A stretch of 38,297 nucleotides of DNA, from sequence record NC_002730.1. The stretch is one strand, 5' to 3'. A program made the translations under genes and the position numbers. The DNA comes from Enterobacteria phage HK620. Below the pieces are notes generated by a model that saw only the letters and a program-made list of their open reading frames with translations, made no database searches and was not told where the DNA came from. The stretch's first letter is position 1. Each line of letters opens with the position of its first letter. Of this stretch, positions 13,349 to 36,610 are shown in pieces.

Positions 13349-14063
13349 GTTAATAAATGGCAATGCCATCAAAATGACAAGCATTGAAATCGCTGAGTTG
13401 GTGGGTAAGCGTCATGACAATGTGAAACGTACCATCGAAACGCTGGCTAAAAATGGTGTTATCCGGCTTCCTCAAATTGAGGTTTCCGAAAGAATCAATA
13501 ACTTAGGGTTCAATGTTCAGTACGAGCATTACGTCTTCGAGGGCGAACAAGGTAAGCGAGACAGTATTGTCGTTGTTGCCCAGTTGTCGCCAGAGTTCAC
13601 CGCTCGCCTTGTTGACCGCTGGCGAGAGCTTGAAGAAACTGCGGTTAATATCCCCAAAACGCTACCAGAAGCGTTGCGCCTTGCTGCTGATCTTGCTGAG
13701 CAGAAAATGCAACTGGAAAACCAGCTCGCAATTGCCGCACCTAAAGTTGAGTTTGCCGATCGCGTTGGCGAGGCCAGCGGAATTTTGATTGGAAACTTTG
13801 CAAAGGTTGTTGGAATTGGTCCAAACAAACTGTTTGCGTGGATGCGCGATCACAAAATCCTTATTGCTTCAGGTTCCCGGCGCAATGTGCCAATGCAGGA
13901 ATATATGGAGCGCGGCTATTTCACAGTGAAAGAAACAGCGGTCAACACAAATCACGGAATACAGATATCGTTCACCACAAAAATCACCGGGCGTGGTCAA
14001 CAGTGGCTGACCAGAAAGCTGCTCGATAACGGAATGCTGAAAGTAACCGGAGAGGCTGCTTAA
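13341..14063 (+). CDS. antirepressor-like protein: N-terminal Rha-type domain plus C-terminal KilAC-type domain
   Basis: 240 aa; N-terminus MTSIEIAELVGKRHDNVKRTIETLAKNG fits the Rha pattern; C-terminal half fits the KilAC pattern. Confidence 0.7.
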   Translation: MNELINGNAIKMTSIEIAELVGKRHDNVKRTIETLAKNGVIRLPQIEVSERINNLGFNVQYEHYVFEGEQGKRDSIVVVAQLSPEFTARLVDRWRELEETAVNIPKTLPEALRLAADLAEQKMQLENQLAIAAPKVEFADRVGEASGILIGNFAKVVGIGPNKLFAWMRDHKILIASGSRRNVPMQEYMERGYFTVKETAVNTNHGIQISFTTKITGRGQQWLTRKLLDNGMLKVTGEAA

Positions 14064-14353
14064 TGGTTAACCTACGCAAAGAAGCGCGCGGCAGAGAATG
14101 CCAGGTACGTATTTACGGCGTATGCAATGGTAATCCTGAAACTACAGTTCTGGCACATTACCGGATGGCTGGAATTTGCGGAACTGGAATGAAGCCTGAC
14201 GACCTGATCGGTGCATGGGCTTGTAGTGACTGCCACGCGGAAATCGACCGACGCACCCATAACCTCGACAACAAAGACGCCAGACTTTACCACCTGGAAG
14301 GCGTGATCAGGACGCAGGCGATACTGCTGAAGGAGGGGAAGATTAAGCCATGA
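14063..14353 (+). CDS. DUF1364-family protein (YbcO-like, Cys/His-rich)
   Basis: 96 aa; immediately upstream of rusA, as in cryptic lambdoid prophages. Confidence 0.65.
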   Translation: MVNLRKEARGRECQVRIYGVCNGNPETTVLAHYRMAGICGTGMKPDDLIGAWACSDCHAEIDRRTHNLDNKDARLYHLEGVIRTQAILLKEGKIKP

Positions 14354-14712
14354 ACGAATATCAGTTTGTGCTTCCATACCCGCCGTCGGTGAACACCTAC
14401 TGGCGAAGACGGGGAAGCCAATACTACATCAGCGATAAAGGCCAGAAATACCGAAAAGACGTTCAGCAAATCATCCGCCAACTCAAGTTAGACATTTTCA
14501 CCAAATCACGACTCCGCATCAAAGTCATCGCAGACGTTCCAGACTCCCGCCGCCGCGACCTCGATAACATCCTGAAAGGTTTACTCGATTCCCTTATCCA
14601 CGCCGGATTTGCGGAAGACGACGAGCAATTCGATGACATTCGCGTAATTCGTGGTGTGAAAGTACCAGGCGGACGGCTTGGAATAAAAATCACCGAACTG
14701 GAGAACGCATGA
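14350..14712 (+). CDS. rusA: RusA Holliday-junction resolvase
   Basis: 120 aa; ...VPDSRRRDLDNILKGLLDSL... matches the RusA catalytic region. Confidence 0.9.
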   Translation: MNEYQFVLPYPPSVNTYWRRRGSQYYISDKGQKYRKDVQQIIRQLKLDIFTKSRLRIKVIADVPDSRRRDLDNILKGLLDSLIHAGFAEDDEQFDDIRVIRGVKVPGGRLGIKITELENA

Positions 14713-29794: not shown

Positions 29795-31144
29795 ATGGCT
29801 ACGTGGCAACAGGGTATTAATTCTGGTGGTTTTCTGGCTGGCATCGGTACGCAAAATGAGAATGCGCCAAAGGCAAGCGACATTAACGCAACGCTTGGTC
29901 TGATCCGCGAAAACAATGAACTGGCTCGCTCAGGTGTAAATAACGTTGGCCTGACCGCGTTACGTGGTCTGGCTGGAGTTGCTGATATTTACAATCAGGA
30001 ACAGCAACAGAAAGCTATTAGTGCGTTCAATAAGGTTCACGCTGATGCATGGGCTTCTGGTGATCCATCTGGACTATTTAAGTTTGCCCAGGAAAATCCA
30101 GCGTTTGTTGCGCAGGCACAACAGGCGTTTTCCGGTCTTAATGAGCAGCAACGCAACGATATGGGCGATTTAGCCATGAGGGCTAACGTCGCTCTTTCCC
30201 AGGGACCGGAAGCCTACAGTAAATTCATTACTGACAACAAGGACAGGTTAAATCGCGTGGGGGCGAATGCTGACTGGATGATTCAGACAGGTATCCAGAA
30301 TCCAGAGCAGCTATCACACATGCTGACTACTATGTCTCTCGGTGCACTTGGGCCAGAAAAGGCTTTTGCTGTTCAGGATAAGATGGTTGGTCGCCAGCAG
30401 GAGCAGCAAAGAATTAACGAAACCATTCGCAATAATGACATGACGAATGCGAGGGCTATTAGGGGGCAGGATCTTTCCTATAAGGCTCAAATGGCAAGAC
30501 TGAATCACGACAAGTATGTGTTTAAGCAGTCACAGGCGGCCCTTGAAAGAGCAGGACAACTTCAGGATATGGATGTTTTGTCTCTTAACTCACAGATAGC
30601 AGCGACGGGAATTGATCCGCTAACCGGTAAAGCTGCAACGTCAGCCAGAATGTCTCAGGCTAAGAGATGGCTTGATGGCAACAATAATTACAACAATGCG
30701 TTGATTACTGGTGAGCGAGGGATAGAGAAAATAGATTCTTTGCTTGGTAAGAAGGAGCTTGAAGGTATCGGTCGCTTCGAAGGAAGAAATATAGATGGCT
30801 TCACAAGTGCTGAAGGGCTTGCAAACCGTAATGCGATAGAAGAATTAAAGTCGGGTGCGTTTGTCCAGAACGTGCAGACTATGCGAGGTATGGGTAGCCT
30901 CTCCAATGCTGAAGGACAAAAACTGGAAAACCTTATCGCGAAACTCGATATAACACAGCCTGAAGAGGTCGTCAGAAAACAGTTATCTGAAATCCGATCG
31001 CAATATTCTGTATTTCAAAAGGTTGCAGCAAGGGAGGCTGAATCAATGGGATATAGTTCATCAGGTTATGACACATATGTTAGTGAGCGAAAATCAGGAA
31101 GCGACAGCAATAAGTCCGGTTTCTCGTCTTTATGGGGTGATTAA
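29795..31144 (+). CDS. DNA ejection protein, P22 gp20-like
   Basis: 449 aa; position in the ejection-protein block. Confidence 0.65.
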
Positions 31145-33312
31145 TGGCTAAAGCATGGAAAGATGTTGTCGCTTCTCCACAGTATCAGGCGTTAACTGAA
31201 GAACAGAAAGCACAGGCTCAAGCGCAATATTTTGATGAGGTTGTTGCCCCTAAGGCTGGTGACAAATGGGCTGAAGCAAGAGATCAGTTTTATGCAGCAT
31301 ACCCTCCGCATCAGCAGCAGAAAGAAGAACCATCATTGATGCAACAAGCTGGCGATTGGCTCACAGGTGGTCAAAGTGCAGGGCAAATTGCAGAACAGGC
31401 TGGTCGTGGTCTGGTAAACATACCATTTGACGTATTGCAGGGTGGCGCAAGTCTGATTAATGCAATCAGCCAGGGGCTTGGTGGCCCCAAGATTTTGGAT
31501 GATGTTTATCGTCCTGTCGATCGACCTACAGACCCTTACGCGCAAGCCGGTGAAACAATTGGTGGGTATCTCCTGCCAATTGGCACAGCGGCAAAAGCTG
31601 CTGGAGCGCCAGCAAAGCTCGCTGGAGATATCGGTTCCGCAGGAAACATGATTGCAGGTTCTCTTGCTGATGCTGCAAATCAGGATGGAGACTTTGCACA
31701 AAATGCTGCCATTAACGGTGGTATCAATATTGGTGCTCAAGGCGTTCTTTCAGGTGTCGGCCGCGTTATTGCGCCAAGGGTTTCACAGGCTCTTGGTGGT
31801 GCAGCACTGAATTCTGCTAATGATGTTTCGAAAATGGCAAAGTCTGGTACAGGAAGAGAGATTATTGCCAGACAGTCAGCTAACGTGTCAGACGAAATAG
31901 CAAAAGCAGCAGATACTGCTGGAATAGATATCAACGCATTAACTCCTGGCATGAGATCAGGTAGTCGTGGTCTTGCTCAGGCGGAGGGGATTCTGGCGTC
32001 AAAGCCCGGAATTACACAGGATGCACACACCAAAGCATTCAGTGAAATAGAGTCGAAATTTAACTCAGCATTGGATGAGTTTGGGGCTGAAGCAGGAACT
32101 GCATCAGAAAAAAGTGCAGCCATAAAACAAAGGGTTTTGGCAAGTATTGATAAAATGAAAAATTCAGAAAAGGCCGCATGGGATAGCGTCCGCTCCACGA
32201 TGCCTGACGCAAAGGCCAGAATGTCAAACCTGAACGCTACAATTCAGGGTGATATTTTGGCTGGCATGCCGCTAACTCCTGAGATGAAACAATTCGCATC
32301 TGCTTATGCTAAAACTGGTAAAAATGGAATCACGTTTGATGCCATGAAGGCATGGCGAAGTAAACTTGCTGACGCTGAGCAGAAGTATATAAGGTCTGGT
32401 GAGGCAAATACGGCAAGGCGCATGGCTGAGCTTCGTGATGCAGCCACGGAAGATATGCGCATAATGGCTCAAAATGGCGGTTTTCTTGATGACTGGCAAA
32501 AAGCTAATGATCTGTCAAAGGCAAGATTTACAGCACAAGAACAGGCTGAAGCAGCGTTTGGTAGAGACCTTGCAACTGATCAGTTGGTAACTAATGGCTC
32601 TAAGGCGTTACAGGGCTCAGCAAAAAGTGGAACAGGTCAGTTTCATAAAATAATAAGCGCCCTACCTGAGTCGGAACGCGCGCCAGCAATTGCATCAATA
32701 TTGCAAGATACGGTATCGCAAGGGGTGCGCGGAGGTAAGTCTGAAGGGGCTGGAATTAAGCATATCGCGACTATTCTTACCCCGCAAAACGTGAAGGCAA
32801 TTAGTCGATATTCTCCAGAACTTGGCAGGATTGCAAGTTCATACGGTGAACTTGCAAGAGCAGCAACAAAGCCACTTCGATATGTTGAACAGACAGGGCG
32901 CTCTATGCCAGCCATTAGCACTCTTGAGAAGGGCCTTCATCCAGTTTTAGAGAGCGTATTGTCTGGCGCTTTTCCAACCGCTGGCGCTATCGCAGGGTTC
33001 TCTGGAGGAGGTGTTATTGGAGCAATAGTGGGTGGCGCTGCAGGTGGAGCAATTGATGCAATAGCAAAAGGATCGATAGCGAAATTATCCGCAACCAGAA
33101 GCGGTCGTTACGCTATTGAAAAGGCTGTTCAAGAGGCAACAAAGGCAGTTAAGGTTGGGGCAAGTGATGGCTCATTAGCGGCGGCTGAACGCAGATTTAT
33201 GGCAAATAAGGCCGCCGTAAAAGCAATACGCGATGCACTAGGAAACGAAGAGTTCCAGCGTTTGTCGAGGGCTGGGATTGTGGCATCGCTAAGCGGAATG
33301 GCACAGGAGTAA
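31144..33312 (+). CDS. DNA ejection protein, P22 gp16-like
   Basis: 722 aa; Ala/Gly-rich; position. Confidence 0.65.
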
Positions 33313-33642
33313 TTAGTCATCCATGGATGGATTGAGCTTATCTCGTGTTGATGTGGCAATTTTCCCAACATTTTTCAACCAAGATTTTAAGAAGGATATG
33401 TCGTCCTTAATATCATGAATATCCTCATTCTTTATACGATCAACCTTATCCTCTAAGCTCTCTATAGAACGCTCAATGCTAGACAGAGAGATTTTTAAGT
33501 CCCCTTGCTCACGTTCCAGTGAGGATTTGAGAGCACAATATTCGTTTTCTAGAATTCCTATTTTTTTTGTTAGAGAGTGCATTCGATACTCATACACCAA
33601 ACCAGAAACGACTAATGCAGCCAACAGAAACCATTCAAACAC
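33313..33642 (-). CDS. small membrane-anchored coiled-coil protein, unknown function
   Basis: GTG at 33642 five nt after a perfect AAGGAGG site; N-terminal TM segment FEWFLLAALVVSGLVYEY then heptad-rich region; AT-rich; the track's upstream extension lacks a ribosome-binding site. Confidence 0.5.
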   Translation of the reverse strand: MFEWFLLAALVVSGLVYEYRMHSLTKKIGILENEYCALKSSLEREQGDLKISLSSIERSIESLEDKVDRIKNEDIHDIKDDISFLKSWLKNVGKIATSTRDKLNPSMDD

Positions 33643-33672
33643 ACCAACCTCCTTAGTTTTTCGCAGGATACC

Positions 33673-34038
33673 ATGAAAAAAGTTAACATTGGAAACGTAC
33701 CAAAGATGCTCGTTCCGCTCTTTGAGAGCGGTACAATTGTGTTTTGTAGAGACTTTCCAGAATGGCAACGCCTGCATCAAAAACTTGGCGTGGACGTGCA
33801 GGACTCGGATGCCAACGGAGCGTCTCATACAATGAGCAGCGAGAATGGTGTTTTGCATGTGATAGGCGTGTTCAATGGCAAACTATCTACTATTGCCCAT
33901 GAGTGCGCTCACATGGCATTCGATATCTGCTCAAGGGTAGGTGTTGATGTTGAACCAGGAAGAGCCAACGAGACTTACTGCTACTTAATGAGCAGGCTTG
34001 TTGAGTTCTGCGAGCGACATATCAAAAAGCCGGAGTGA
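33673..34038 (+). CDS. small putative zinc metallopeptidase-like protein (HExxH motif)
   Basis: 121 aa; motif TIAHECAHMAFD in hydrophobic context; ATG with AGGA ribosome-binding site; stop codon lies in a terminator hairpin loop. Confidence 0.5.
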   Translation: MKKVNIGNVPKMLVPLFESGTIVFCRDFPEWQRLHQKLGVDVQDSDANGASHTMSSENGVLHVIGVFNGKLSTIAHECAHMAFDICSRVGVDVEPGRANETYCYLMSRLVEFCERHIKKPE

Positions 34039-34046
34039 CCCGGCTT
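34022..34046. terminator. bidirectional hairpin terminator at the end of the HExxH gene
   Basis: AGCCGG-AGTGAC-CCGGCT with T-runs on both strands, stronger on the minus strand. Confidence 0.5.
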
Positions 34047-34321
34047 GATTATTACTTTTTGCTGTCTGGAGTTCGCTTATCTAATACCCAGCCATGACCT
34101 GGCTTTGTTGTTGGCGGAAGCCTTTCGTTGTCCTTGACGGTGGCAAAATTGTCTTTCTTACCGCCGCGCGGGCCAACTTATTGGTATATACCGCCGTTTT
34201 TTCCCGTGTTTTCACCTGGTTTTTTCGCCATGATATACCTCAACATACACCCGTTATTGGGCGATTAAATATTGATCTCATTTTATAAGTAGTCAATATG
34301 TCCCAGGTAAATGCAAAAATT

Positions 34322-34345
34322 AACCCACCGTCAGGTGGTTTTTTG
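34322..34345 (+). terminator. rho-independent terminator
   Basis: CCACC-GTCA-GGTGG followed by TTTTTT. Confidence 0.6.
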
Positions 34346-34395
34346 TACAAATCCTTCAGCCAGTACATAACTACTGACAGATAACCAACGCAACG

Positions 34396-34418
34396 ACCCA
34401 GCTTCGGCTGGTTTTTTT
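34396..34418 (+). terminator. rho-independent terminator just upstream of the tailspike gene
   Basis: CCAGC-TTCG-GCTGG followed by TTTTTTT. Confidence 0.65.
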
Positions 34419-34477
34419 ATGCCCAAAATTCACCGTGGCCATGCTGCGGCGATTCCTTGTATCTGGAGCAAATTAAA

Positions 34478-36610
34478 ATGACAGATTCAATAAATGCCAA
34501 TGTTGTAGTGAGCATGCCTTCGCAACTCTTCACTATGGCGCGTTCTTTTAAAGCCGTAGCCAATGGCAAAATTTATATCGGGAAAATTGACACTGATCCG
34601 GTAAATCCTGAAAACCGGATTCAGGTTTATGTAGAGAACGAAGACGGCTCTCACGTTCCTGTTTCTCAACCAATCATCATTAACGCTGCTGGTTATCCGG
34701 TATATAACGGACAGATTGCCAAATTCGTTACCGTGCAAGGCCATTCTATGGCTGTTTATGATGCATATGGTGCTCAGCAGTTCTATTTTCCTAATGTGCT
34801 TAAGTATGACCCTGACCAGTTCAGGGCAATTATAGAGTCACCAGAAGGTGCTGGACACGTAGGATATCAGTATCGCAGGAATACAGGGTCGACCATGAGA
34901 ATGGTAAGCGATGTGCTGGATGAGCGTGTGAGCCTGTGGGATTTTCATTGTGACCCATCCGGCAATGTAATTCAGCCAGGACCAAACGTTGACAGTCGCC
35001 AATATCTACAAGCAGCAATTGATTATGTATCGTCTAATGGAGGTGGAACAATCACCATTCCAGCAGGCTATACGTGGTATCTTGGATCTTATGGTGTTGG
35101 AGGAATTGCAGGGCATAGTGGAATTATTCAGTTGCGCAGCAATGTTAATCTAAATATTGAAGGTAGAATTCATCTTTCTCCATTCTTTGACCTTAAGCCA
35201 TTTCAGGTGTTTGTAGGCTTTGATAATGGCGATCCCGCAAGCTCTGGTAATCTGGAGAACTGCCATATTTATGGGCATGGTGTAGTGGACTTTGGTGGTT
35301 ATGAGTTTGGAGCATCCAGTCAACTACGTAATGGTGTTGCTTTTGGGCGTAGTTACAATTGTTCTGTAACAGGTATTACTTTCCAGAATGGTGACGTTAC
35401 TTGGGCTATTACCTTAGGCTGGAATGGGTACGGGTCTAACTGCTACGTGCGCAAGTGCCGCTTTATCAACTTAGTGAACAGCAGTGTCAATGCAGACCAC
35501 AGTACAGTGTACGTCAACTGCCCCTACAGCGGAGTTGAGTCCTGCTACTTCAGTATGTCTAGTTCATTCGCGCGTAACATCGCGTGCTCTGTAGAGTTGC
35601 ACCAACATGATACCTTCTACCGCGGAAGTACTGTAAACGGATACTGCCGTGGCGCATATGTAGTTATGCACGCAGCAGAGGCTGCTGGTGCAGGTTCTTA
35701 TGCTTACAACATGCAGGTTGAAAACAACATCGCGGTCATTTACGGCCAGTTCGTTATATTAGGCTCTGACGTAACTGCTACAGTCTCTGGACATCTTAAT
35801 GACGTCATCGTATCTGGTAACATCGTAAGTATTGGTGAGCGGGCTGCGTTCTCAGCTCCGTTTGGGGCATTTATTGATATTGGCCCGGACAATAGCGGGG
35901 CTAGTAATGTACAAGATATCCAGCGAGTGCTTGTAACAGGCAACAGTTTCTATGCTCCTGCTAACATCACTGATAGTGCTGCAATTACCCTGCGAGCTAA
36001 TCTTAATGGTTGCACCTTTATCGCTAACAATTTTGATTGCCGTTACATGGTCTACAACGCTCCCGGTACTACAAGCCCTGTAGTTCAGAATCTGGTATGG
36101 GATAAGTCCAATGTTATCGGCGGGACTCACGCGAATCAACGTGCAGGACAGAATCTATTTGATATGCAGTTTGCATCTGTAGTAAACAGCACTATAGAAG
36201 TACAGCTTAGCTGTGAAGATCTGAGCATGTTTAGCTGCATACTCTTCCCTGCATCATGTCAGTTGTCGTACTCGAAGATAACGGTAGATTCTGCATGGAC
36301 AAAAAGCATGTCAAATACCGCGGTATTTGAAGGTAATCAACAGGCAGGTGCTAATGTATATGTGTCGTATCCAGCTACCGTTAACCTTACAAGTTACAAC
36401 ACCCAAGGAGCGGTTCCTTTCTTTAGTACAGACACCAACTACGCATGGGTTACCAGCGCCTACTCTTTAAGTATTAACGAAAATTTAGATTTCTCGCCAC
36501 CAGCTACTTATACCAATAAAGCCAACGGACAGTTGGTTGGGGTTGGGTATAACGAGATAGGTGGGGTGCGTTCAGTTAGTGTGAGGTTGATGCTGCAGCG
36601 TCAGGTGTGA
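34478..36610 (+). CDS. tailspike protein: P22-like N-terminal head-binding domain fused to a divergent receptor-binding (O-antigen-cleaving) domain
   Basis: 710 aa from [12 protein letters not shown]...; first ~110 residues parallel the P22 tailspike N-terminus; remainder is Gly/Asn/Ser/Val-rich. Confidence 0.9.

Follow-up and report, generated by a model that had tools for sequence, protein, structure and literature searches.

The region between gene 16 and the tailspike gene of P22-like phages has been named the 'ant moron' (Villafane et al. 2008) and is described as a region in rapid flux, without a role in morphogenesis (PMC2629481). In phage P22 it lies between genes 16 and 9 and carries sieA, hkcC, orf59a, mnt, arc, sar and ant. 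The same work lists hkcC and 59a as P22 genes of unknown function, places the HK620 gene hkcB in a similar position and reports that the ant gene is degraded in HK620 (Villafane et al. 2008, PMC2629481). Here we analyzed the corresponding locus of Enterobacteria phage HK620 (sequence record NC_002730.1). The window, that is, the whole stretch of DNA analyzed, has 38,297 nucleotides (nt), and its accessory stretch at 33313-34470 is located between an open reading frame (ORF) of 722 amino acids (aa) at 31144-33312, in the position that the P22 annotation gives to the gene-16 ejection protein, and the tailspike gene (ATG at 34478), whose product hardly differs from the HK620 tailspike of the crystal structures (PDB 2VJI and others). 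On sequence grounds this locus appears to be the left arm of a P22-type ant moron that remained after a 1.43-kb deletion of mnt, arc, sar and ant. The best explanation overall, which we regard as quite probable, is a left arm that holds a cassette site, a hydrolase encoded by hkcC and a dead convergent orf59a.

Comparison with phage genomes (megablast/blastn) revealed that positions 33635-34360 of the window are 98% identical to P22 13823-14549 over 726 bp. This P22 segment spans the sieA start codon, the sieA promoter (PsieA), the hkcC frame (unannotated), the mnt terminator, orf59a and the last 31 nt of mnt; the P22 annotation puts the sieA promoter at 13861-13891, the 'mnt terminator' at 14212-14234 and orf59a at 14240-14419. 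The adjoining segment, 34361-34445, is 93% identical to P22 15977-16062 (blastn) and corresponds to the final 17 nt of ant plus its terminator. Relative to P22, HK620 shows a clean 1,427-bp deletion with its junction at 34360/34361, which takes away arc and sar completely and the greater part of both mnt and ant, while the minus-strand ORF 34240-34368 still encodes '...LKDLYKK', the C-terminus of Mnt. A search of the HK620 locus for the components of P22 immI found that the mnt, arc and ant genes and the Pant/Pmnt operators are absent, the leftovers being some 31 nt of mnt and some 17 nt of ant together with its terminator. An initial annotation of this DNA had supposed that the locus stands instead of P22 immI; this has to be corrected, since P22 has the same hkcC/orf59a DNA beside immI, and HK620 lost immI by deletion. 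Thus the two phages share the position of the region and the ant terminator, and they differ in the deletion, in an unrelated 109-aa ORF that follows the shared GTG instead of sieA, and in a nonsense codon within orf59a. The features of the locus, in window positions, are the following:

33313-33642, minus strand: 109-aa ORF, most likely hkcB, in the slot of P22 sieA (GTG start, PHROG 5962, homologues, predicted helix)
33643-33672, minus strand: 30-nt shared leader with the Shine-Dalgarno (SD) sequence GGAGG of the cassette gene, from the alignment of 12 cassette classes; its complement bears the hkcC SD, AGGA
33673-33703, minus strand: equivalent of the P22 sieA promoter, inside the first 31 nt of hkcC (P22 annotation and coordinate mapping)
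33673-34038, plus strand: hkcC, 121-aa cytoplasmic protein with HExxH (H76, E77, H80) and E100 (ORF list, PHROG 1365, profile search, AlphaFold2 (AF2) model)
34027-34046, minus strand: intrinsic terminator of the orf59a transcript, the P22 'mnt terminator' (terminator scan, P22 annotation), with a good U-run on the minus strand and a poor one on the plus strand
34052-34231, minus strand: orf59a homologue (YjzC family), apparent pseudogene with an in-frame TAA at codon 18, 34178-34180 (translation, PHROG 3202, family alignment)
34248-34296, minus strand: predicted own promoter of orf59a, TTGACT-17-AATATT (34296-34268), and an inverted repeat or hairpin (34263-34248) (scan, conservation)
34325-34338, either strand: hairpin at the mnt remnant's 3' end, with a U-run on each strand, conserved with P22 and terminator-like for plus-strand (late) transcripts (scan)
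34330-34360, minus strand: mnt remnant, the last 31 nt or so (blastn to P22 14519-14549, mnt sequence, ORF 34240-34368)
34361-34419, plus strand: last 17 nt or so of ant and the ant terminator (stem 34398-34411 plus T-run), directly upstream of the tailspike gene (blastn to P22, P22 annotation, terminator scan)

The same deletion architecture, with an intact orf59a, is present in Escherichia coli prophage remnants such as that of strain PK8276, where the Prokaryotic Genome Annotation Pipeline (PGAP) calls all three genes hypothetical. The PK8276 remnant (chromosome 601930-603835) lies between emrY/dsdA and a tail-fibre gene, has the same mnt-ant junction as HK620, and consists of the end of gene 16, hkcB, hkcC, intact orf59a and the head-binding domain alone of the tailspike. 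An Rfam scan over 33200-34600 returned no credible RNA family. The locus is already described in the literature and is not a new regulatory module, so that its novelty is low; its description as an ant moron agrees with the view of the initial annotation that these are accessory, non-structural genes. Scans of the hkcB, hkcC and orf59a products against Pfam and NCBIfam gave nothing significant, and the significant matches were to PHROGs of unknown function only. No functional study turned up when the literature was searched for hkcC, orf59a, YjzC and small anti-defence HExxH proteins of phages.

The reading of the minus strand downstream of hkcC also changes. The initial annotation had proposed a mini-transcript for a 17-aa peptide that ends in a strong terminator. 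This 17-codon ORF (34231-34178, with a GAGG SD and an ATG) represents the first 17 codons of orf59a; past the TAA, the frame runs for 41 more codons to a double TAA, and a comparison over all 59 codons shows 96% identity to P22 orf59a, Glu18 (GAA) being changed to TAA. The frame matches PHROG 3202 across all 59 residues (E=1.6e-29). Its match to the Pfam model YjzC (PF14168) falls below the cut-off (E=0.017), and its relatives carry PF14168 or the UniRef name 'YjzC family protein'. Glu18 is nearly invariant in 30 aligned members of the YjzC family, and among about 90 loci examined the in-frame stop occurs in HK620 only. HK620 therefore shares with the YjzC family, P22 orf59a and PHROG 3202 the 59-codon frame and differs from them in its interruption at codon 18, and orf59a is best described from its sequence as a pseudogene in this phage. 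The proposed terminator is real, but it is located where the ancestral 59-codon ORF ends, about 130 nt past the TAA. PADLOC gave no match for the orf59a product.

The 121-aa plus-strand HExxH protein of the initial annotation was recovered as hkcC. The ORF contains TIAHECAHMAFD, and no other HExxH occurs in the window's stop-to-stop ORFs of 100 aa or more, which total 15,004 aa. A published table gives hkcC [Bacteriophage HK620] (NP_112089.1, 121 aa) as matching at 100% its counterpart in a P22-like phage (PMC4837284). It belongs to PHROG 1365 (E=1.4e-39). A word-indexed search found 32 clusters with identity down to 43%, and 446 representatives, almost all of them 100-150 aa long, were recovered at E<=1e-3 by an exhaustive profile search, which makes a family of at least 446 clusters at 50% identity; over genome contigs, the A1 profile detected three loci only. 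When 71 diverse members (23-74% identity) were aligned, the only invariant columns were H76, E77, H80 and E100. The cysteines that the enterobacterial subfamily conserves are not conserved across the wider family.

The AF2 model of hkcC, a confident one built with the family alignment (mean predicted local confidence, pLDDT, 88; predicted template-modelling score, pTM, 0.83), consists of two short strands, a helix, a beta-hairpin, a helix at residues 71-89 that bears HExxH and a helix at 100-116 that begins at E100. The predicted order of elements is that of the zincins, because a beta-sheet is followed by the HExxH helix and then by the helix beginning at E100. This is consistent with the zincin-like character suggested initially, as HExxH is conserved across the family and the putative third-ligand Glu stands on the next predicted helix. 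Among the structural neighbours of hkcC in BFVD at template-modelling (TM) scores of 0.6-0.8, some are named SprT-like, metalloprotease or PolyVal metallopeptidase. H76, H80 and E100 would act as the metal ligands and E77 as the catalytic base, and with moderate confidence we regard hkcC as a zinc-dependent hydrolase of the gluzincin type, the metal binding and catalysis being read from motif and model.

With the minimal gluzincins hkcC shares an HExxH helix placed after a beta-sheet, a Glu 20 residues past the second His and a domain of about 120 aa, and it differs from them in that neither its sequence nor its predicted structure shows detectable similarity with a solved zincin. Thermolysin shows the same 20-residue spacing (H146-E166) as hkcC (H80-E100), and minigluzincins of about 105 aa have a thermolysin-type HExxH...E site. 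The likeness to the SprT-like (PF10263) and MPTase-PolyVal zincin domains of phages and conjugative elements lies in the few BFVD neighbours so named and in one of the 71 relatives, which matches PF10263 at 1e-4. hkcC itself differs from SprT-like proteins, since it has no Pfam match and E100 is invariant while the position of the third SprT His is not conserved: a test with the profile and with HExxHx5H was negative, and the position six residues past the second His (+6), a Cys in the enterobacterial subfamily, is unconserved more widely. We also observed a non-significant profile match (E about 1) of hkcC residues 34-84 to residues 2187-2234 of the N4 virion RNA polymerase (vRNAP), in its C1 domain. 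A 2026 paper reports a conserved HExxH in this domain, which would be a zincin-like motif in an ejected protein.

The convergent arrangement of hkcC and orf59a is found well beyond the P22 group. In eight of nine independent divergent lineages, with 43-65% identity to HK620 hkcC, a convergent 59-codon YjzC gene lies 4-30 nt past the hkcC stop, and orf59a stands beside hkcC in 68 of the 80 near-identical P22-like loci. The stem of the orf59a terminator is encoded by the last hkcC codons (K-K-P-E/A-stop), with the stop in or beside the loop, in all eight divergent loci, and the hkcC C-terminus is conserved because this hairpin is encoded by its last codons. The convergent YjzC-family gene would form a third unit of the locus, with its own conserved promoter and a terminator made from the end of hkcC, and it would be inactivated in HK620. 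Among the 12 P22-like loci without orf59a, the one examined (L007; 5380-6429) has a gene for a 74-aa membrane protein in the same convergent position, adjoined on the same strand by a 178-aa ORF.

The 109-aa minus-strand ORF proposed as divergent from hkcC is real, and it starts with GTG, not ATG, 5 nt after GGAGG. The two start codons were measured to be 30 nt apart, corroborating the earlier estimate of about 30 bp. We take this ORF to be most likely hkcB, because the literature puts hkcB in a similar HK620 position and it is the sole other gene there. It matches PHROG 5962 (E=1.8e-61), and its homologues are enterobacterial, with 46-98% identity and the highest conservation in the C-terminal 45 residues. 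The membrane anchor and coiled coil that had been attributed to the protein are borne out in part: the N-terminus is hydrophobic (Kyte-Doolittle 1.9 for residues 1-15) and followed by basic residues, it is the only hydrophobic segment, and the AF2 model is one long helix at residues 2-103.

Alignment of 12 classes of P22-like prophages showed that they are near-identical from inside hkcC through 'ACTAAGGAGGTTGGT GTG', with complete divergence straight after the GTG (33642). At least 12 unrelated ORFs follow this shared SD-GTG, all of them with a transmembrane, signal or lipoprotein N-terminus. The cassettes in the slot include SieA (164 aa), hkcB, a 161-aa lipoprotein, a 129-aa secreted protein and a second 109-aa transmembrane plus coiled-coil protein, as well as transmembrane proteins of 62, 75, 106 and 149 aa, a YobH-like protein of 68 aa and a secreted protein of 99 aa; in a more distant locus the slot holds a Rap1a-like immunity protein. 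The conserved promoter, leader and SD-GTG (the PsieA region, partly inside hkcC) would drive expression of the small envelope protein that happens to be inserted behind the GTG. The earlier proposal that each promoter lies inside the other gene fits the minus-strand gene in this way, the P22 sieA promoter being in the first 31 nt of the hkcC frame.

hkcB resembles P22 SieA in using the promoter, SD and GTG of sieA, in its small size and predicted membrane anchor and in adjoining the ejection-protein genes, and it differs in having one predicted transmembrane segment and a long helix, while SieA is described with several predicted transmembrane helices. HK97 gp15 is another moron-encoded membrane protein that acts in superinfection exclusion. 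That hkcB might be a divergent SieA was considered and ruled out, as there is no homology to SieA types A-C, no FxRYPxEAxxFNK motif, and a single hydrophobic segment with a long helix. P22 sieA placed in galK gives full exclusion with no more than 85 bp of its upstream DNA, and sieA is weakly transcribed in lysogens (PMC10883804). Since HK620 shares this 85-bp segment, hkcB is likely to be made at a low level from the prophage. A role of hkcB as an envelope-level factor of lysogenic conversion or superinfection exclusion is suggested by its position, and we propose it tentatively.

In some 80 P22-like prophages, where hkcC lies between gene 16 and the tailspike gene, it is oriented in the sense of the late operon. 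It is also sense to the late genes in siphovirus prophages from Rosenbergiella, Klebsiella, Xenorhabdus and metagenomes, between the tail chaperone and tape-measure genes. Phage epsilon34 has a paralogue with 38-40% identity after the lysis cassette, directly upstream of the annotated decoration protein gene (gp71) and again sense to the late operon; it is gp70 (2501-2890 of the examined locus), corresponding to orf-129 of ST64T, and HK620 has no second copy. Phages L and ST64T show an hkcC match at a record position similar to that of the epsilon34 paralogue. Upstream of hkcC in P22-like phages, conservation is confined to the 30-nt leader, beyond which lies whichever cassette is present, and this excludes a conserved hkcC promoter upstream. 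Late read-through transcription into the region is established for P22 (cited in PMC2629481). The hairpin at the hkcC end has a poor U-run on the plus strand in the terminator scan. From the sense orientation, the lack of a conserved promoter of its own, the late read-through in P22 and this poor U-run, we infer that hkcC is probably expressed late, from read-through transcripts. A promoter-like sequence, TTGAGA-17-TAGAAT (10/12 matches), is present on the plus strand at 33527-33555, antisense inside hkcB and about 118 nt upstream of hkcC.

The terminator scan identified six terminator-like hairpins against 1.1 expected, among them a strong one on the minus strand at 34046-34027. The two plus-strand terminators that had been noticed before the tailspike were both found, as the hairpins at 34325-34338 and 34398-34411. 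The promoter and the inverted repeat of orf59a are conserved in loci whose proteins are only 60-83% identical. Pairing of the inverted repeat is kept in 86.7% of cells, compared with at most 46.5% when the partner is slid, and covariation was not significant (87 of 500 shuffles were as high). One compensatory change, from C-G to U-A, was seen in the repeat. This element may be an RNA hairpin or an operator. These data show that the orf59a transcription unit is real and conserved.

Several observations weigh against parts of the explanation given here. hkcC has no match in Pfam (none at E<=1), NCBIfam or PADLOC. A fold search of the PDB retrieved no solved zincin structure for it, and the sequence profiles (A1, A3) gave PDB matches that were sub-threshold only, to myroilysin (E=0.3) and N4 vRNAP (E about 1). 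The zincin assignment is drawn from the motif together with the topology of the model and a small number of named viral neighbours, and HExxH is found in non-peptidase enzymes too. For hkcB, PADLOC gave a single sub-threshold coiled-coil match, to DpdH (E=0.0025, no passing stretch), and tblastn with SieA found nothing in the window or in the hkcB-carrying loci, so that position is what speaks for an exclusion role. The hexamers of the PsieA equivalent are poor and were missed by the consensus promoter scan, and the site at 33527-33555 could drive hkcC independently, in HK620 specifically. Finally, the TAA in orf59a is possibly a sequencing error in the source record.

Other explanations were weighed against the same data. 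The idea that the 17 codons form a leader or mini-peptide gene in its own right, with a regulated transcript of its own, draws on the good SD, the ATG and the conserved promoter upstream, but these are the signals of the 59-codon gene, found intact in all other loci, and the frame continues past the TAA with its near-invariant E18 position; homology to orf59a rules the leader peptide out, and we give this idea practically no credence. A repressor-cleaving protease of the ImmA/IrrE type (M78), serving as an antirepressor in place of the lost Ant, would account for the HExxH motif, for the location of hkcC next to immI in P22 and for one BFVD neighbour named IrrE (probability 0.63). Neither PF06114 nor any other Pfam family matches at E<=1, however, and no gene with a helix-turn-helix (HTH) or of ImmR type adjoins hkcC, whose neighbours are hkcB and orf59a. 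Moreover, P22 has hkcC alongside a full mnt-arc-ant, and hkcC also occurs far from immunity genes, within tail operons and behind lysis cassettes. The lack of a match and these genomic contexts rule out an ImmA-like antirepressor, and the proposal, which had been put forward in the initial annotation as a protease-based antirepressor, is now very improbable.

The comparison with M78/ImmA, SprT and other minimal zincins thus gave named BFVD neighbours and no significant Pfam or PDB match for hkcC itself, and the anti-defence role that had also been suggested found no PADLOC defence-system match. In its more specific form, in which hkcC would be a counter-defence enzyme of SprT-like or MPTase-PolyVal type, made late or packaged, that degrades a defence or exclusion protein of the current or next host, this role agrees with the SprT-like and PolyVal neighbours, with the single relative matching PF10263, with the location of hkcC beside genes for ejected proteins (gene 16, tape measure) in the sense of the late operon, and with the spread of the family over lytic and temperate phages. 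The third ligand is nevertheless Glu and not the SprT His, there is no significant match to solved SprT or Wss1 structures, and we consider the role unlikely. Moreover, hkcC is not known as a P22 virion protein. hkcC and orf59a could also form a functional module, in which a late-made zincin cleaves, or is inhibited by, a small basic YjzC-type protein made in the lysogen, giving a phase-specific switch between lysogeny and lysis or a self-immunity pair. In its favour, podovirus ant morons and siphovirus tail operons alike keep the convergent pair at hkcC identities of 43-100%, orf59a has its own conserved promoter, and its terminator overlaps hkcC codons. Against it, 12 of the 80 P22-like loci keep hkcC without orf59a, HK620 retains hkcC beside a dead orf59a, YjzC genes are widespread without hkcC, and more distant hkcC relatives and the epsilon34 paralogue have no orf59a partner; the physical overlap alone may account for the co-inheritance. 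We judge a functional module to be quite unlikely.

We therefore retain the explanation of the locus as the left arm of an ant moron with a cassette site, hkcC and an inactivated orf59a. Its value is in part corrective, as the 17-aa mini-gene is read as a pseudogene and the locus as a deletion derivative of the region beside P22 immI, not its replacement; the region itself is textbook P22-group biology, a moron in rapid flux. The convergent hkcC/YjzC pair with its shared terminator is kept across very different phages, and in the module, if true, a protease made late would act on the small basic protein that the lysogen makes, or be controlled by it. It is similarly a long shot that hkcC founds a widespread, structurally unsampled family of phage zincins of about 120 aa which, in enterobacterial phages, works as a module with a convergent YjzC-type gene beside a plug-in site for envelope cassettes. 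The SD-GTG site offers a ready catalogue of candidate exclusion or protection factors, which includes SieA and a Rap1a-like type VI secretion system (T6SS) immunity protein. hkcC itself represents a large phage-only family in which the residues of the gluzincin tetrad are the only invariants, with no solved relative or Pfam model, and its structure and substrate would define a new peptidase family.

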